Of a stretch of 64,000 nt of DNA, positions 11,300-64,000 are shown piece after piece. How positions within the stretch are numbered: the stretch's first letter is position 1; every line of letters starts with the position of its first letter. The stretch is from Eledone cirrhosa (lineage: Eukaryota), in assembly GCA_964016885.1 (NCBI GenBank), contig OZ024740.1, positions 145,700,001-145,764,000 of the forward strand, written 5' to 3'. The translations under genes and the position numbers were made by a program. The notes under the pieces are model-generated. The model was not told where the DNA came from and did not search any database. It saw nothing but the letters and a program-made list of their open reading frames with translations.

Positions 11300-14200
11300 G
11301 GTGGGAGTAGGGAAGAATATACAGCCACTAAGAGAGAAGCTAGACGTCAGGTGTACTTAGCACGCAGGGAGGCAGAGAGTAGGAGGTTTGCCAATGTTCT
11401 GCGACGGGAAGATCAGAGGCGTGCGGTGTTCCACATTGCAAGGCAGTGTGTCAATGCAAATCAGGATGTTCATCATCATCATCATCATCAACGTTTAACG
11501 TCCGTGTTCCACGCTTGCATGGGTTTGGACGGGGGTAGTCCCACTTGAGGCAAGAGTGATTGTCTTGCTCGCATAGGACTGTCTGGCAGGTTTTCTACAG
11601 TTGGATGCCCTTCCTAACACCAACCACATTTACAGTGTGGGTCTGGGAGGTTTTTACCGTGTTGCCTACACGGCCACATTACAGCGTGGACTGTGTGTTT
11701 TTTTGTCGTGACACCTACACGATCTCATTTGTTTCGGCCTCGATGGCGCGGCACCAACATAACTTTACATAGAACGGGGTGGTGTGGATCGGGTGGGGGT
11801 GGTGGTGGTGGGACGGGGTGTATTTTGTTAGAGATGCCTACTGGCTGGAGTAGGTTTTACTATATATTTAGGTAAGGCGGGTCTTCTCTGTTACTGAGTA
11901 CCGCCAAAGGTCTCGGTCCAGTGACATTGTCTTGGAGAGGTGTAAGTGTGTGATGTCGGAGTTTATCAGCTCGTCCCAGGTTTTTCTAGGTCTGCCTATT
12001 CCGTGACTACCGTCTATCTTTATTGCCCTGCACTTTGTTATACAGCTATCGACTTTCATGCGCATCACGTGTCCATACCAACGTAGCCTTCTCTCGAGTA
12101 AACAACATCTGATCCCTCTTATCTCTAATTTTTTCCTTAGTTCGTTTATGCTTTGCCGTTCACGTATATTACTGTTACACATCCAGCGGAGCGTGCAAGC
12201 TTCGTTCCTCTCTAGTCTGCGTATATCCTCTGCACACAATGCCCAGGTCTCACTGCCATGCAGCATTGCTGTTCGTATGCAGGCATCGTACAACCTGCCT
12301 TTCATTTTTAGTGAGAACCCTTTAGCAGCTAATAGTGGTATAAGCTCTCTGAACTTTTTCCAACCAGTTCTGACTCTAGCTACAGTACTTTCAGAGCACC
12401 CTCCCCCACTGCTGATTTTATCGCCCAGGTAACGGAAGCTGTCCACTATTTCTATAGAACCCTCTGCGCAATTGAAAGAGCTAGTAGTTTGTGGGCACTT
12501 GCTGCTACTTATTGCACCAGAGCACCGGCCACATGTAAAATCTATGTTCTTAGTTAGCTTACCTGTGATCCCACTACATCTTTTATGCACCCATACTTTG
12601 CATTTAGGACATAAAATGGAGTTTCTACCTACGCCTTTCCTACACACCGAGCACGACCATTTCCCAGAAGGGACCGCCGCCTTGTTTTCTTTCCTACAAA
12701 CTAGTACTTTGGTCTTAGCCAGGTTAATTTTAAGTCCTTTTGACTCTAGGCCGTGCTTCCATGTTTGGAATTTCTTCTCTAGCTCGGCCATTGATTCCGC
12801 TATGAGTGTCAGGTCGTCTGCGTATAGGAGTTCCCATGGGCAGCCTGTCTTGAACTCCTCTGTTATAGCCTGAAGGGCAATAATAAATAGTAGTGGACTG
12901 AGAACAGAGCCCTGATGGACGCCAACTTTTACGCTAAACTCTTCACTATATTCGTTGTTAATTCTAACCTTGCTGACTGTTTCTTTATACATGGCTTGTA
13001 TAGCCCTCACAAGCCATTCGTCAACGCCTAGTTTTCTAAGAGCCCACCAGATAATGGAGCGGGGGACTCTGTCGAAGGCTTTCTCCAAGTCGACAAAAGC
13101 TAAGTAGAGGGGTTTACCTTTAGCTAGGTACTTCTCCTGTAGTTGTCGTACTATGAAAAGAGCGTCTGTGGTACTTTTGCCTGACACAAACCCGAACTGC
13201 ATTTCATCTAGGTCAAGATGTTGTTGGATATAAATGTGTCCGGGATGATGCCGGTGTACTTAGTGTCACGAATGACCAGAAAAAGGAGGCCTGGAAATGT
13301 CATTATGAGAGACTGATGAATGTGGAGAACGAATGGGAGAGAGAGAAATTACCCTTGGTAGATCCGACAGAGGGACCAGCTATTGAGATTGACGAATATA
13401 GGGTCCAAGAGGCGATTAGGGAAATGAAAAATGGTAAGGCGGCCGGACCATCGGGAATAGTTGCTGAGATGCTGAAGGCATCAGGGGACGTAGGCACTAA
13501 ACTGGTTGCACGCATCATCAATCAGGCTATATATGGTGGTGTCATACCCAAAGACTGGTGCAGCAGTATTCTCATAAATTGCTACAAAGGTAAAGGGGAT
13601 GCTTTGGAGAGGAGCAATTATAGGGGTATAAAACTGATAGATCACGTTATGAAAGTGGCAGAAAGGATTTTAGCACAACTAATTAGAGAAAGGGTCAAAC
13701 TAGATGAGATGCAGTTTGGTTTTGTGCCTGGGAAGAGTACAACAGATGCCCTCTTCTTGGTGAGACAAATGCAAGAGAGGTTCTTAGAGAAGAATAAGCC
13801 ACTATACTTAGCCTTTGTTGACCTAGAGAAGGCCTTTGATAGGGTACCCCGATCTGTCATCTGGTGGTCCCTAAGGAAGCTAGGTGTTGAGGAATGGCTT
13901 GTGAGGACAGTGCAAACTTTGTACAGAGGTACTCTCAGTAAAGTCAGGGTAGGAATGGAGTTTAGTGAGGAATTCTAGATACAAGTAGGAGTACATCAGG
14001 GTTCGGTCCTCAGCCCGCTCTTGTTCATTATAGTCCTCCAAGCCATAACAGAGGAGTTTAAGACTGGCTGTCCATGGGAACTTCTCTATGCTGACGATCT
14101 GGCTCTTATAGCAGAATCAATAGAGGAGCTAGAGAATAAATTCCGGCTATGGAAACAGCAGTTGGAAGCAAGAGGACTGAGAGTAAATCTAGCTAAGACA

Positions 14201-15083
14201 AAAGTGTTGATGAGTAGAAAAGAGGACAAAACCCTGATTCCGTCAGGGAAATGGCCATGTTCGATATGCAGAAAAGGAACTGGCATAAATTCTATAAAAT
14301 GCACACAATGCAGGTCCTGGGTACACAAGAGATGTAGTGGGATAGCAGGCAAACTAACAGGTAGGGAGAAATATGTATGCAGTAGATGTACAGGGAAATT
14401 AGACAGTAGAAGTCGCACTGATAGACACATTTTTCAAATGCGAGAGGGCGCTATAGAAGTGGTGGATAGCTTCCGGTACCTAGGAGATCAGATTAGCATG
14501 GTAGGAGGGTGTTCCGAGGCCATAGTATCTAGAATAAGGACGGGTTGGAAGAAGTTTAGGGAGCTGCTTCCTCTGTTGATGAAGAAGGGTTTCTCCCTGC
14601 GTACGAAAGGCCGGTTGTATGATGCCTGTGTGAGGAGCGCGATGCTGCATGGTAGTGAGACATGGGCAGCAACCGCAGAGGATATGCGACGGCTGGAGAG
14701 AAATGAGGCAAGCATGCTCCGTTGGATGTGCAGTGTAAATGTGCGTGAACGACCCAGCATAAATGTGTTGAGAGAGAAACTGTGTCTGAGAGGGATAGAA
14801 TGTAGTGTACGGGAGAGGAGACTGAGGTGGTATGGACATGTGATGCGCATGGAGGATGACCGATGGGTGAAGAAGTGCCAGGAAATGCCAGTTGAAGGAA
14901 GACGTGGTAGAGGTAGACCACGAAAAACATGGGCGGAGGTGGTGAGAACAGACCTCAGATCATTGAAGCTCACGGTGGAGATGACGAGGGACCGTGATGA
15001 GTGGAGAGATGCTGTGCTGAATAAGACCCGTCCCACCCTTGCAAGCAGGGAAAAGCGGACGTAAAATGATGATGATGATGATG
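11300..15083 (+). mobile_element. RTE-clade LINE, subfamily B, 5'-truncated and split by a nested RTE-A (11471-13216)
   Basis: 11300-11470 encodes REARRQVYLARREAESRRFANVLRR. The frame resumes at 13217 and is open to 15064 except one TAG (13976-78). It ends ...KTRPTLASREKRT* followed directly by (GAT)n. Confidence 0.95.
11471..13216 (-). mobile_element. RTE-A, 5'-truncated, with intact 444-aa RT/PHD/C-terminal ORF; nested in RTE-B
   Basis: ORF 11868..13202 has no stops. 3' UTR and (CAT)n lie at 11471-11490. TSD GATGTT at 11465-11470 and 13217-13222. Confidence 0.95.
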
Positions 15084-25754: not shown

Positions 25755-26089
25755 GGAGGCACATGGCTTAGTGGTTAGAGCATTGGGCTTGCAATCGAAA
25801 GGTTGTGAGTTCAATTCTCAGACCGGGTGATGTGTTGTTTCCTTGAGCAAGACACTTTATTTCACATTGCTCCAGTTTACTCAGCTGTAGAAATGAGATG
25901 ATAGGGACTGGAGTCCCTATCATTCCACTGCAAAGTGGTCGTGGAGGTGCCACGGCAAAAAGCACCCAGTACTCACTGTAAATGAGGTTGGTGTTAGGAA
26001 GGGCATCCAGCTGTAGAAATCAAGCCAGAATCAGTTCCTGTCCCACCCTTGCAAGCAAGGAAAAGCAGACGTAAAATGATAATATGATA
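25755..26089 (+). mobile_element. tRNA-derived SINE (CORE-like middle, RTE-type tail), copy 2
   Basis: GGAGGCACATGGCTTAGTGGTTAGAGC (A box), GAGTTCAATTC (B box), CORE-like CCTTGAGCAAGACACTT, RTE UTR block and RTE-B terminus. Flanked by (TA)n. Confidence 0.9.
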
Positions 26090-29784: not shown

Positions 29785-30374
29785 AATTGAGAGAAAGACT
29801 GAGCATAAGAGGAATCAAATGCTGTGTGCAGGAGAGGCGGTTGCGCTGGTATGGACATGTGATGCGTATGAAGGATGACAGCTGCATAAAAAGGTGCAGA
29901 GCACTAGAAGTCGATGGAAACCGCGGAGTAGGGAGACCCAAGATGACCTGGGATGAGGTGATAAAAGCTGACCTTACCCAATTACACCTCTCAAAGGCGA
30001 TGACACACGACCGTGACCTCTGGCGTCACGCAGTAATACAGAGTACCCGACCTCCCGTGGGTACAAGCTGAAGCATATAGACAATATGCCCCCACATCCC
30101 CAACTGCAAGGTGGTCGTGGAGGTGCCACGGCAAAAAAGCACCCAGCCCACATTGTAAAGTGGACGTGTAGGCGCCACGAAAAAGCACCCAGCACTCACT
30201 GTATATGAGGTTGGTGTTAGGAAGGGCATCCAGCTGTAGAAATCAAGCCAAATCAGTTCCTGTATGAGCAAGGCATGGTCAGCCGACCAGACACTGCCCA
30301 CAACAGGACAACCCGTCTAACCCATGCTAGCATGGAAGAACGGACGTAAAACGGTGATGATGATGATGATGATG
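29785..30374 (+). mobile_element. RTE subfamily C 3' fragment
   Basis: ORF RERLSIRGIKCCVQERRLRWYGH..GRPKMTW, a distinct 3' UTR and a (GAT)n tail. Confidence 0.92.
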
Positions 30375-30732
30375 AATTCTACATTATAAAACAAGTTATT
30401 TAATTATATCAGCTGAATCTCATTTTTAATCAACTTTTGTAATATGAAAAAATAGAAAAATAATTAACATAAGTAATAATATAACCACCAGTAGCCTTCT
30501 GAATAAACTGGTTTCTGAATTTTACTGGTTTCAGTTATTAGACTGGTCATGCTGGGGCACTGATCAATATATCAACCCCAGTGTTTATTATTTTTTGGTA
30601 CTTATTTTAATGATCCATGTTTATTGAAGTTCTGAGTCATTGATCAACCTGAGATTATAGTAGAAGACATATACCAATGGTGCCATGCATTGGGACAAAA
30701 TCCAGAATAACATGATTGCAATGCAAACTTAA

Positions 30733-47858: not shown

Positions 47859-50835
47859 AAATTCGTGATGTGTGCTTGACTTAGATTGGCTTCATAGACG
47901 AGGACCCGGCTACTGGAAGCTAAACGCGTCCTTACCAGCGCGCAAGGCCTACAGAGACCGGATTAGCAAACTAGTTAAGCGGGCATTGACGGGGGCCATC
48001 GTCAACAACAAGTGGTGGTTTGCTCTGAAAAGAGCGATTAGAATAGAGTCCATTAGGTTTAGTAAGGCTTTAGCAATAGAGAAAAATAGAGCAGAGGGAG
48101 AACTAGTTAGAAAATTAGACGAGGCGCTTAGCAAAGGCATCGCGACCGACGTACTTGCGGCGAAATTGGCCCTTGACCAATTCTTCAATGCAAAGTATGA
48201 ATGCTGCGTTGTCAGAGCTAGGGTGCGTGCTCTCAGACACGAGGGGACGAAAGCCGTTCAATGGCCCCAAGTGGCGGAGGCGCGTCGTGGCAACAAAGCC
48301 ACAATCTGGTCTTTGGTGGACCACGACAGGCGCATGCTACTCGATCCTGGGCAAATGTGTGAAGCTTTTCAGCGACACTTCGCACAGCTGTTCGGGGGCA
48401 GCGGCGGGCTGGATCGAGGGATGGACTTTAGTGTCTACCTCGACGGACAGCCGCGGCTCTCGGCCACTGAGACGGAGTATTGCGAAAAGCCGATAACAGC
48501 TGCTGAAGTACGGGAGGCAATGACTGGCTGCACAAGGGGAAAATCGCCTGGTTTGGATGGTCTGCCCTATGAACTTTACGTACAGATGCCAGACTTGTTC
48601 GGAGGCCTCTTGGCAGATGTCTACTGCAACTGGCAACAGAACGGGTGAATTCCCAGCTCTGTGAGCCGAGGAGCTGTGGCGCTGCTGAGAAAGGATCCGA
48701 ACAAGGGGGATAACATAGATAATTTAGGCCCATAACTCTGCTAAACACAGAGTTCAAGATTTTGGCCAAGGTGCTAGCAAAGAGGTTGGCGCTTGTCGTT
48801 GGTGGTCTGGTGGGAGAGGCGCAGACATGTGCCATGCCCGACAGATCTATCCACGACAACCTCCACCTCATGCGATACATCGTAGAGAGGGTAGCTAGGG
48901 AACCTGGCACGGGTGGGTCCTTGATCAATTTAGATCAGTCGAAAGCTTTCGATAGGGTCGACCATCGTTACCTAGCGACAGTCCTGAGGGCGGCTGGCTT
49001 TGGGCCCGTCTTCAGAAGATGGATCACTGCCATGCACAGCGACATCTGTTCTGTGGTGAGAGTGAATGGTCACCTTTCGGAACCATTCAACATCATGCGC
49101 TCGGCCCGCCAAGGATGTCCCCACTCGTCCTTCTTGTACGTATTGACTCTCGAGCCATTACTGCACAAACTGGAGACGTTGAGGGGGGTCCCGCGCGAAC
49201 TAGGGTGGGGAAGATCCGTGTCAGCATATGCGGACGATGTCACCGTAGTGGTGTCGAACGCCAAGCACATCAAGGCGATCGGCACTACATTAAGAGAATA
49301 CGAAGCGGTGACAGGAGCAATGATCAACCAGGAAAAGTCAGTGGGCCTGCAGCTCGGCACCTGGAGAGGCAGGTCCATGCCGTCCAACAGCGTCGTCGGG
49401 CGCTGGACGGATGGACCGGTTAAATTGCTAGGGGTCTGGTTCGGTCCAGACCTCCAGACGGACAAAAACTGGGACGAGGTGACGAGCAGGGTGGCTTCTC
49501 TCACCCAGAATGGGCGGAGAGGAAGATATCCCTGAAAGGTCGAGTGGAGGTGGCTAACGCGTACATCATGTCCGTCATCTACTACCGCCTGACCGTCCTA
49601 AGCCCCGCCTGACTGCGCTGGAGCGTTTGCTCTTTCGCTTTTTGTGGAAGGGACGCGCTCCGATGGTCAGGCGGTCCATCTGCTGTCAACACCCGCTACA
49701 TGGAGGGCTGGGCATGCCGTGGCTGATGATGCGCAGACACGTGCTCAGGCTACGACATCTCCACCTTTTCCTCGATGGTGCTCAGGTGTGGTCGCCGTTT
49801 GCTAGACGCGTCTTTCCCCAACTCGTCTCCTTGACGGAGCTGCAGTCCTGGGTCAAGCAAAGACTGAGAGGGAGCCCCTGGAGACTGGAATGTCTTCAGG
49901 CGCTCACAGCCCTCCACCAATCGGGCAATGTGATCGGTCGAAACTCCACCTTGGCGTTTTATAGTGGATTAGTGGAGGGGAAGAGCGACGATGTACTTGG
50001 GGAAATTCTAGGCGTCGAAGAAAATCAAATAGCCAATCTCTTCAGAAGAACTTTCGGGCCGGGGCCTATGGACAACTTCCAGAAATCCCTGGCCTGGCAG
50101 TGCTACCAAGGAGCTTTGCCAGTTCGGGATAAACTCTACAGGCATGGAGGTGCCGTCAGCCAGGCATGTCCGAGATGCACGCAGGGCGACGAAACCGTCT
50201 TGCACGCACTCGTCCAGTGTCCGAGCATTGCTGACTTGTGGGTTGATGTCAAACACCTGCTGTCGCGTGTAGGACAGATCCAGCTATCAGCTGAGTCCAT
50301 CGTGAGGATTGCCCCGCCCTCTTCCTTTAGCCTGGAAGGGCAGGCAGTTTTTATCTGTCTGGTGGCCATGGTGAAAGAGATAGTATGGTGGACACGTTTG
50401 AAAGGGCTGAAGACGAGCACTTACCTCCTCGGTGATGCCCTGATTAACTTTTTCAAATTTCATTTGAAAAGGAAAATCAGGGTAGAGAGGGAAGTGCTCT
50501 CTTCCCAGCATTTTGTTGAAAGATGGGTGAGAGAGGCAAGAATGGCCTGAGTGAATGGGCCTACTCTGAGTATGTGTCTGTAAATTAAAGGTGGAAAACT
50601 GGGAGAGGGCACTTGCCCTGGTGGTCAGGGTCACTGTGGCTTTTTAATGGGCTTTCTCCACGAATGTCCCTCGGAAGTCTCCCCCCTATTGGGGAATTTT
50701 TTCATTGTTCTATTATTACATCCTCTGTTTTGGGGGGTTTTTTACATGCAGAAATGCCCTTTTGTACCGTCCAGTATTGTCCTGTACTGTCCTTAATGTC
50801 TACTTTATGTAAACCCTTGTGGTTAATAAAGAAAG

Positions 50836-50873
<38 letters not shown>
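47858..50873 (+). mobile_element. Tx1-clade (L1 group) LINE, 5'-truncated ORF2 with frameshifts
   Basis: GPGYWKLNASL, KSPGLDGLP, RPITLLN, DQSKAFDRVDH, RQGCP, AYADD and C-terminal CPRC..ETVLHALVQC. 3' UTR with AATAAA. (ATT)n on both sides. GC-rich. Confidence 0.93.
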
Positions 50874-50874
<1 letters not shown>

Positions 50875-51009
50875 TTTTTCAGGTTTCACCTGAAAAGGAA
50901 AAATAGGGTGGAAAGGGAAGTGCTTGTTTCCAGCCAGTCTGTTGAAAGGTGGGTGAGAAAGACAAGAATGGCCTGTGTGAATGGGCTTGCCCTGAGAGTG
51001 TGCCTGTAG
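50874..51009 (+). mobile_element. Tx1 C-terminal fragment (second copy)
   Basis: Homologous to 50449-50583 (FF.FHLKRK...ERWV..CL*). Starts immediately after (ATT)n. Confidence 0.85.
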
Positions 51010-51011
51010 TT

Positions 51012-51973
51012 TCGTAGGAGCTGGAATGTCTTCAAGCACTCACAGCCTTCTACCAGCTGGGCACTAGTATCGGTGGAACATCCACCTCAGCGTTCTATAG
51101 AGGACTAGTGGAGGGGAAGAGCGACAACGTTCTTGGGGAGACCCTGTGTGTCAAAGACAAGGGAACTTTCAACCTGGGGCCTATGGACAACTTCCAGAAA
51201 TCCCTGGCCTGGCAGTGCTACCAGGGACATTGCCAGTTTGAGATAAGCTCTACACGCACAGAAGTGCCATCAGCCGAACCTGTCCAAGATGCATGCAAGG
51301 CAACGAAACCTACATGCACGCACTCGTTCAGTGCCCAAGCATTGCTGACTCATGGAGCTATGTTGAACAGTTGCTGTCATGTGTAGGATGGATCCAGTTA
51401 TCGACTGAGTCCATTGTGCAGATAGCCCCGCCATCCTCCTTTAAGGAGGAGGAAGGGCGGGTAGTTTTTGTCTGCCTGGTGGCCATGGCAAAAGAGACAA
51501 GGTTGAAAGGATTGAAGACGGACACTTTCCTCTTCGGTGAATCCCTGATTAATTTTTCCAAATTTCACTTGAAGAGGAAAATCAGGGTGGAGAGGCAAGT
51601 GCTGTCTTCTAGTAAGTTTGTTGAACGATGGGTGAAAGTGGCGAGTCTGGTCCGAGTGAACGGGCCCGCTCTGAGCATGTGCCTGTAGACTGAGGAGTGG
51701 GGGAACTGAGAGAGGGCGCTTGCCCTGGTGGTCAGGGTGGCTGTGGTCTTTTGTGTGGTTTTCACCACGAGTGACCCTCGGAGGTTTCCCCCCTTTTGGG
51801 GAATTTTTGTTGTTCGAATTTTTTTGATTTGTTTTTACACATTTCCATCTTGTTATAACCTTTTTACATGGCCAAAATCCATTTTGCATCGTCCTGTACC
51901 GTTCTGTGCCGTCTGTAATGTTTTTCTTCGTGTTAGCCCTTGTGGCCAAATAAGAAACCATTATTATTATTAT
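51012..51973 (+). mobile_element. Tx1 3' fragment (third copy, diverged)
   Basis: GPMDNFQKSLAWQCY, HALVQCPS and FHLKRKIRVER motifs. 3' UTR ends cccttgtggccaaataagaaacca(tta)n. Confidence 0.9.
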
Positions 51974-54423: not shown

Positions 54424-55726
54424 GTTTAACGTCCATCTTCCACGCTTGGGTTTGGACAGGAATTTTCCCACTTGAGGCAAGATTGGTTGTCCTGCTCATA
54501 TAGGACTGTCTGGCGGGTTTTCTACGGCTGGATGCCCTTCTAGCACCAACCACGTTTACAGTGTGGACTGGGAGGTTTTTACCATGTTACCTACATGGCC
54601 ACATTACAGCGTGGACTGTGTGTTTTTTTGTCGTGACACCTACACGACCTCATTTGTTTCGGACTGGATGTTGTGGTACCAACATAACTTTACATTGAAA
54701 GGGGTGATGTGGATAGGGTGGGGGTAGTGGGACGGGGGTAGTGGGACGGGGGTGTATTTTGTTAGAGATGCCTACTGACTGTAGGTTTGGCTTTGTACTT
54801 AGGCAAGGCGGGTCTTCTGTATTACTGTGTAGCGCCAAAGATCTTGGTCCAGTGACATTGTCTTGGAGAGGTGTAAGTGTGTGATGTCGGAATTTATCAA
54901 GTCGTCCCAGGTTTTTCTGGGTCTGCCTACTCCGTGGCTACCGTCTATTTTTATTGCCCTGCACTTTTTTATACAGCTGTCGTCTTTCATGCGCATCACG
55001 TGACCATACCAACGTAGTCTTCTCTCGAGTAAACAACATCTGATCCCTCTTATTCCTAATTTCTCCCTTAGTTCGTTTATGCTTTGCCGTTCACGTATAT
55101 TACTATTACACATCCAGCAGAGCATGCAAGCTTTGTTCCTCTCCAGTCTGCGTATATCCTCTGCACACAATGCCCAGGTCTCACTGCCATGTAACATTGC
55201 TGTTCGTATGCAGGCATCATACAGCCTGCCTTTCATTTTTAGAGAGAACCCTTTAGCGGCCAATAGTTGTATAAGCTCTCTGAACTTTTTCCATCCCGTT
55301 CTGACTCTAGCTACTGTACTTTCAGAGCACCCTCCACCACTGCTGATTTTGTCACCCAGGTAACGGAAAGTGTCCACTATTTCTATAGAACCATCTGTGC
55401 AATGGAATGAGCTAGTATCCTGTGGGCACTGCTGCTACTTATTGCACCAGAGCACCAGCCACATATAAAATCTATATTCTTAGTTAGCTTACCTGTGATC
55501 CCACTACATCTTTTATGCACCCATACTTTGCATTTGGGACATAAGATGGAGTTTCTACCTACTCCTTTCCTACACACTGAGCATGGCCATTTCCCAGATG
55601 GGACCGGTGCCCTATTTTCCTTCCTACAAACTAGGACTTTAGTCTTAGACAAGTTAATTTAAGGCCTTTTGATTCTAGGCCATGCTTCCATGTTTGGAAT
55701 TTCTTCTCTAGTTCAGCCATTGATTC
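54394..55726 (-). mobile_element. RTE-A, 5'-truncated (PHD, C-terminus, 3' UTR)
   Basis: ORFs 55383..55652 and 54799..55377. (CAT)n tail at 54394-54424. Confidence 0.95.
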
Positions 55727-61204: not shown

Positions 61205-63747
<2,543 letters not shown>

Positions 63748-63796
63748 ATATATATATATATGTATATATATTTATATGTATATATATATATATGTA

Positions 63797-64000
63797 TAAA
63801 AGCACCCAGCCCACACTGTAAAGTGGACGTGCAGGCACCATGGAATAAGGCACCCAGCACTCACTGTAAATGAGGTTGGTGTACGGAAGGGCATCCAGCT
63901 GTAGAAATCATGCTAGAATCAGTTCCAGTATGAGCAAGACAAGGTCAGCCAACCGGACACTGCCCACAACAGGACAACCATTCTAACCCATGCTAGCGTG
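63797..64000 (+). mobile_element. RTE-C 3' UTR fragment
   Basis: Matches 30135-30335 and runs off the window end. Confidence 0.85.

Follow-up and report, generated by a model that had tools for sequence, protein, structure and literature searches.

A tandemly repeated unit of about 50 nt, together with a conserved sequence block that follows it, is common to three LINE families of Eledone cirrhosa (RTE-A, RTE-B, and RTE-C, which we take to belong to the RTE clade from element anatomy) and recurs inside a SINE. The unit occupies three different placements, is conserved between families, is flexible in copy number, and is read straight through when elements are copied. It is quite possible, though we stop short of calling it probable, that unit and block together represent an RTE 5′-UTR piece that would serve as a position-independent, folded RNA signal bound by an RTE-encoded protein. 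The original prediction of an undescribed functional RNA, made from the window (the whole stretch of 64,000 nucleotides analyzed here), is sustained insofar as the unit is uncatalogued, conserved, and probably an RNA-level cis-element of RTE elements.

Architecture and abundance of the unit

Stem 1 of the unit has an invariant core of 3–4 pairs, extends to as many as 7, and closes a loop of 5–7 bases, of which the last 4–5 are complementary to a strand located after an A-rich linker. An invariant CAG comes after this strand, and the unit ends in a predicted second hairpin with an invariant CTGTAA (Table 1). The two hairpins are predicted with fair support; the H-type pseudoknot with its A-rich linker is predicted less firmly, with a geometry of 1–2 bases in loop 1, 0 in loop 2, and 5–8 in the A-rich loop 3, and a stem 2 of 4–5 bp. 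Re-reading the sequence recovered all of the stems, linkers, and hairpins quoted in the original prediction where they had been placed. The AGGT-containing loop is present in the examples quoted there and absent from RTE-B units, RTE-C unit 2, and one RTE-A subfamily. Stem 1 and the second hairpin are present in minimum-energy folds; none of seven stretches folded better than shuffles (z −0.18 to −1.87), using a program that cannot score pseudoknots.

Table 1. Features of the window, numbered from its first nucleotide
Feature	Position	Strand	Basis or remark
RTE-C ORF 3′ end, 5′-truncated copy	29787..30071	+	Translation; stop codon 30069–30071
Lone hairpin upstream of array	30100..30114	+	GNRA-type loop in most copies, one mismatch here
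RTE-C unit 1	30113..30163	+	Sequence, minimum-energy fold for hairpins, family table
Unit 1, stem 1	30114–30119/30127–30132	+	Or one pair longer
Unit 1, predicted pseudoknot stem	30122–30126/30139–30143	+	
Unit 1, A-rich linker	30133–30138	+	
Unit 1, second hairpin	30148–30151/30160–30163	+	
RTE-C unit 2	30162..30214	+	Sequence, fold, family table
Unit 2, stem 1	30165–30168/30176–30179	+	
Unit 2, predicted pseudoknot stem	30171–30175/30185–30189	+	Central C–A mismatch, fixed in family
Unit 2, terminal hairpin	30189–30198/30206–30214	+	
Conserved RTE block after array	30209..30234	+	5′-UTR position in RTE-B, also in other animals' elements
RTE 3′ terminal stem-loop (30322–30335) and (GAT)n tail	30322..30375	+	Sequence
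tRNA-headed SINE	25757..26082	+	tRNA match 25764–25821, body, unit 25937–25988, block, RTE-B-type 3′ tail
RTE-A 3′ UTR units 1 and 2	63498..63598	+	
RTE-A 3′ UTR units 1 and 2, second copy	54548..54649	−	
RTE-B copy	13157..15064	+	ORF runs into tail, no unit at 3′ end

The genome was sampled as the window and 146 further 10-kb stretches chosen at round positions, including two adjacent to the window, for a total of 1,524,000 bases. In this sample a sequence-only profile of the unit returned 365 matches of at least 14 bits, and 0 when the bases were reversed. By extrapolation, the 3.0 Gb genome would hold a few hundred thousand array loci. Within the window, a model of the unit has 26 matches at E ≤ 0.05, and the block motif occurs 19 times, where shuffles predict 0.77 occurrences. 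The sample contains 126 arrays: 56 single, 46 double, 8 triple, and 16 with 4 to at least 46 matches, partial units included in these sizes, so that the expected count of about two units per element does not describe them. The block had been said always to follow the array directly; it does so in 102 of the 126, and arrays are always in sense orientation before it.

At some loci the unit has expanded to form minisatellites, with copy numbers from 6 to at least 46 (L163:1-2200, L358:1-1800, L118:1400-2450, L140, L085, and L130), several of which still end in block and RTE tail. In the RTE-A copies at L119, L131, L291, L313, L314, and L362, unit 2 and block are together duplicated two to four times with a common junction; the two-fold form is dispersed and has therefore moved as an RTE-A subfamily.

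Placement in three LINE families and a SINE

The RTE elements have a single ORF with Pfam RVT_1 and Exo_endo_phos matches (a 1027-aa frame in L160) and (GAT)n tails. Long RTE-C copies contain endonuclease and RT motifs upstream of a 3′ end like that of the window copy, whose 3′ stem-loop and (GAT)n end are common to all 30 of its closest copies. A PHD finger (Pfam PF00628, above cut-off) lies just behind the RT core in RTE-A and RTE-B ORFs (window 11868–13256, reverse strand, and 13979–15061, forward strand). Pieces of another LINE type, with RT and a zinc-knuckle-like C-terminal part and unrelated to the unit, occupy window positions 47869–51688.

The unit had been described as a feature of RTE 3′ UTRs, which is accurate for RTE-C and RTE-A, where it lies between ORF and tail (15 and 24 arrays with both contexts, respectively), and inaccurate for RTE-B, where it lies in the 5′ UTR, and for the SINE, where it is internal. 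No unit or block is present in the approximately 600–650 nt of common 5′ sequence in 12 long RTE-A copies or in 4 long RTE-C copies, the true 5′ ends of which may lie further up. In RTE-B, by comparison, 23 of 29 loci have the block no more than 700 nt ahead of the endonuclease, a native 5′ UTR with 1–4 units before the block is found in 21 of 52 5′ regions, and an ATG is 44–57 nt from the block start in 36 of the 52; none of 10 RTE-B tails adjoining the ORF contains a unit. RTE-A and RTE-C are sister families, 80% identical in amino-acid sequence (as compared with 67%–71% identity to RTE-B), so a single move of the unit would be enough to account for this distribution.

RTE-B subfamilies have swapped the upstream 5′ UTR at one junction inside the unit, with 364 exact junction matches in the genome (swap loci L053, L055, L065, L067, L072, L075, L077, L079, L373, L376, L380, L389, L394, and L399). 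The RTE-B monomer is about 90 bases long (L063, L066, and L370-L399) and may contain a second pseudoknot just before the unit, in which a pyrimidine run is complementary over 7–8 bases to the purine-rich loop of a G4/C4 hairpin; in the first monomer, the two sides of this candidate have changed to match.

The SINE has one unit between body and tail, followed by the block and an RTE-B tail, and 23 SINE-type arrays have this B tail. Its head is identified by an Rfam tRNA match; a search of the window with ARAGORN returned no tRNA gene. Unit and block match the RTE-B 5′-UTR arrangement and the tail is the RTE-B end, such that the SINE, judged by its sequence, has the bipartite RTE-SINE design of an RTE 5′-UTR piece joined to an RTE 3′ tail. 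The unit is of C type, is joined to a B-type tail, and is kept perfect in a non-coding element. At G000:C6:102337000-102476000 and C8:118000-305000, copies of a variant SINE head are spaced about 5.9 kb apart, a periodicity that points to a large tandem array.

Conservation and covariation

Family-level sequences of the unit are 67%–84% identical between RTE-A, RTE-B, and RTE-C. Synonymous sites of the three families are saturated, with four-fold sites of the ORFs identical at 41/115, 41/112, and 34/106 for the A/B/C pairs. Across the family-level set (nine sequences of 5–56 copies each, with one single-copy class dropped), 28 of 50 unit columns are invariant, two of the 28 being poorly filled in RTE-B. 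This conservation could reflect selection or recent exchange between families; exchange does happen, as the joining of a C-type unit to a B-type tail in the SINE demonstrates, and passive carriage of the unit would be possible in a SINE this young.

The claim that pairing is kept while sequence changes holds at family level for the cores of the two hairpins and fails for the pseudoknot stem. In the hairpins, one-sided changes led to G–U four times and to A–C never, and double-sided changes occurred at four pairs (two via a G–U state), with fraying at the ends of the stems. In the pseudoknot stem, a single double-sided change (RTE-A unit 1) stands against five kinds of break. It is broken in two of six unit types: RTE-C unit 2, where the C–A mismatch is the majority state (56 copies, 51 loci), and RTE-A unit 2, which has lost three pairs or adopts a shifted register of 3–4 pairs. 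Terminal mismatches occur in RTE-A unit 1 and RTE-B. At least four contiguous pseudoknot pairs are nonetheless kept in one unit per mobile family (C unit 1, A unit 1, B, and SINE).

The original prediction counted a lack of significant covariation as evidence against itself, and this is what the tree-based test returned: no pair was significant and none had E below 1.3 (150 null replicates for each of two sets, of 97 and 65 unit types), in a test of low power because most unit types are decayed single copies and about six are independent. The best proposed pair ranked 6 of 1081, with E about 10–25; the top four pairs were rejected as base pairs, being lineage markers. Per-pair permutation over the six unit types gave P values of 0.07–1.0 for all seven pairs tested. 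Among 24 hand-picked related units, 75.5% of cells pair, as compared with 33%–46% after sliding the partners. Their covariation score is higher than that of 499 of 500 shuffles under a control that ignores relatedness; the count of seven double-change pairs in these units was reached by 203 of 500 shuffles.

The block outside this genome

The block also occurs in elements of other animals, at 121 loci from two collections, of which 108 represent one short element. In the 100 of these 121 loci that were searched with the model, no unit was found beside the block (best E 0.34), so that the unit cannot be regarded as a signal common to RTEs in general. The earlier statement that a twister can precede the block is supported at one of the 121: a degenerate twister-P1 sequence lies directly upstream of it at L253:320-377 (reverse strand), with a score of 24.1 bits where the gathering threshold is 67.2 (E 0.3). 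Older elements (L117:3400-3530, L129:5240-5370, L136, and L262) have a different hairpin motif upstream of the block. The sequencing runs listed as containing the sequence included no RNA run. Contigs from two other organisms span 27 of 29 bins along the RTE-C end, and two runs that may be RNA yielded 0 and 1 contig.

In the short outside element (L170-L289, metagenome loci), 79 copies have an identical start motif exactly 30 bases before the block, and a possible nested pseudoknot would include the block itself. The loci scanned gave no relevant Rfam match. Owing to its sharp 5′ end without a tRNA head, this element is a better ribozyme candidate than the unit.

Possible roles of the unit

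Under the reading tentatively preferred here, unit and block would be a 5′-UTR piece now located ahead of the RTE-B ORF, behind the ORFs of RTE-A and RTE-C, and within the SINE, with the folded unit bound by RTE protein at template loading, whatever its position in the transcript, and acting alongside the 3′ stem-loop. The 5′ position is presumably ancestral, and the ancestor of RTE-A and RTE-C may have taken a bipartite element of 5′ piece plus tail as its own 3′ end. A role in either UTR, one to many copies, compatibility with a SINE, and a sense-strand preference for G–U are together best fitted by a signal for the RTE protein; a role in translation or Pol II initiation fails to explain the unit, because the non-coding SINE retains it perfect. 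SINEs mobilized by RTEs have repeatedly and independently kept internal 5′-UTR pieces (Kojima, 2018, PMC5786205), and RTE-1 templates are made with both cognate UTRs (2026 review, PMC13708176).

RTEs, almost alone among LINEs, repeatedly spawn SINEs holding a 5′-UTR piece (PMC5786205). The present genome is a natural experiment in which one such piece functions, or at least persists under constraint, in all three settings (5′ UTR, 3′ UTR, and non-coding SINE), narrowing the candidates to position-independent roles. The 50-nt unit, with its natural compensatory variants, is thereby a candidate object for RTE-protein binding. Gene writers based on RTEs, with templates that use both UTRs, are in development (PMC13708176), and a portable loading signal would be practical there.

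A possible but unlikely alternative is that the unit stabilizes or promotes translation of RNA without poly(A), as a nuclease-blocking or translation-enhancing pseudoknot stack in either UTR. Tandem pseudoknots act in this way in some plant-virus 3′ UTRs. The tandem H-type geometry with an A-rich linker is present in the sequence, the elements end in (GAT)n, and an ATG is close to the block in the 36 RTE-B regions noted above; HDV-like ribozymes of other LINEs have been reported to aid initiation (PMC6765202). However, the stems are short (4–5 bp in the pseudoknot) and partly broken, and persistence of the unit in a non-coding SINE suits a role in stability and not one in translation.

We also doubt that the hairpins alone, the block alone, or nothing at all matters, and that the unit is an old, duplication-prone repeat adjoining the functional block, spread by exchange between families and by slippage, with an incidental pseudoknot. 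Such an origin would agree with the nonsignificant covariation, with folding no better than that of shuffles, with the broken pseudoknots of RTE-A unit 2 and RTE-C unit 2, with the minisatellite-like behavior of arrays of 6 to at least 46 units, and with the presence, in older families and in other animals, of other sequences at the site preceding the block. It is harder to reconcile with 28 invariant columns and G–U-biased changes in families with saturated synonymous sites, or with the intact pseudoknot unit in each mobile family. Were the unit only a passenger of the block, it would amount to a modest piece of repeat anatomy.

That the unit is instead a promoter or enhancer monomer acting at the DNA level, with its base-pairing reflecting palindromic binding sites, appears improbable. 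Rodent L1 5′ UTRs contain tandem promoter monomers. The 1–4 monomers of the RTE-B 5′ UTR and the subfamily 5′-UTR swap within the unit are reminiscent of such a system, and transcription-factor binding has been speculated upon (Kojima, 2018, PMC5786205). Against a DNA-level role stand the strand-specific tolerance of G–U in the hairpins, the invariably sense orientation before the block, and the fact that both 3′ UTRs and a Pol III SINE retain the unit.

The position of the unit upstream of the block, where L253 has twister-like sequence, its invariant unpaired bases, and the resemblance of its stem-loop and pseudoknot to the first half of pistol had made a self-cleaving ribozyme worth considering. 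Yet a shared 5′ end of inserted copies, as expected of a ribozyme, was not found; the elements were reverse-transcribed straight through the unit and have no common 5′ junction, contrary to the ribozyme candidacy originally put forward. The SINE-tail set comprises 37 rows, 13 of them tail-only or RTE-B ends; of the 24 unit-bearing copies, 19 (the reference included) begin no more than 8 nt from the head, 4 begin in the body upstream of the unit, and 1 is an array. Rows starting upstream of the array number 11 of 17 for RTE-C and 12 of 28 for RTE-A, and the other rows are accounted for by duplication junctions, by the edge of an array or locus, by chimeras and tail-only copies, and by a small number of scattered truncations. 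Junctions inside units, placed by eye in eight copies, fall at model positions 12, 14, 15, 20, 21, 22, 30, and 34, three of them in the A run. The native RTE-B 5′ UTRs (21 of 52) extend at least 338 nt upstream of the block, and cleavage within a 3′ UTR would separate ORF from tail. A like argument against a ribozyme has been made for SINEs (Kojima, 2018, PMC5786205). Two pile-ups of junctions were rejected as cleavage sites: that at the RTE-B 5′ junction, where the 13 of 52 regions with the junction also share sequence upstream, for which reason we read it as an inherited 5′-UTR swap, and that in RTE-A 81 nt before the block, which is an internal duplication.

Comparison with ribozyme families agrees with the earlier view that the unit fits neither the twister nor the HDV-like, hammerhead, or pistol consensus: in the window and 27 loci scanned with Rfam, no match fell on the unit. 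A pestivirus 3′-UTR match at 63744–63863 was set aside as chance-level (37.2 bits against a gathering score of 90, E 0.85); it overlaps a TA run and a partial array. Twister, characterized by helices P1–P4 with L4, two pseudoknots, and a conserved core, has no match at E ≤ 1 in the window and none at E ≤ 5 in seven further loci, using a scan that does detect the weak L253 twister. There is no Rfam match to HDV-like ribozymes, which have a nested double pseudoknot and a catalytic C, or to hammerhead ribozymes, which have a three-way junction around a conserved core, and by inspection each unit has at most one pseudoknot, although Rfam models may miss divergent HDV-like forms. As regards the P1-loop pseudoknot of pistol, four of six unit types have the complementarity for it, without significant covariation; the P2/P3 arrangement of pistol, with the pseudoknot strand between the two helices and a two-base cleavage junction, is absent, and the linker of the unit runs straight into its pseudoknot strand. 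These observations make a self-cleaving ribozyme unlikely, and we hold it very improbable that the unit is a new ribozyme of slow or conditional activity, or that a pistol-like half-fold cuts a fraction of transcripts (for example, by two-unit or in-trans assembly), in which case partial self-cleavage would throttle or trim RTE and SINE RNA at some hundred thousand genomic sites.

Relation to known systems

Classical H-type pseudoknots have an A-rich loop in the minor groove, and some plant viruses stack such pseudoknots in tandem in their 3′ UTRs. The unit resembles both in its dimensions (stem 1 of 4–7 bp, stem 2 of 4–5 bp, and loop 3 of 5–8 nt) and in its tandem copies. It differs from the viral stacks in having a retrotransposon as host, in moving between UTRs, and in that its fold is predicted and stem 2 is broken in some units.

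With pistol (PMC4604425) the unit shares a short P1 hairpin, a loop predicted to pair downstream after an A-rich linker, and a further hairpin. Unlike pistol, it has no P2 enclosing the pseudoknot strand, hence no P3–P2 cleavage junction, and no Rfam match. Twister ribozymes at RTE 5′ ends (Perere-3 T-variants, PMC8501958; Rfam RF03160) are comparable in their association with RTEs and in the twister-like sequence before the L253 block; the unit, however, lacks a twister core or Rfam match and sets no 5′ end.

The open-access literature searched, PMC10085705 among it, contained no description of the unit, its fold, or a 5′-to-3′ relocation in autonomous RTEs. In the passages searched of two papers on octopus repeats (PMC9115989 and PMC13282606), the word “ribozyme” is absent. 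Three short motifs of unit and block were not found in the searchable text of the supplement to Kojima (2018), where alignments given as pictures or with broken lines could conceal them.

Both the bipartite design of such SINEs and conserved 5′-UTR domains of RTEs have been published. The bipartite RTE SINEs of Kojima (2018, PMC5786205) have, as here, a tRNA head, a CORE-like body, an internal 5′-UTR piece, and an RTE tail, and the RTE domain described in that paper likewise has a mid-5′-UTR position and can be duplicated. Unlike those elements, the 5′-UTR piece described here is also the 3′ UTR of two autonomous LINE families, and a fold is proposed for it.
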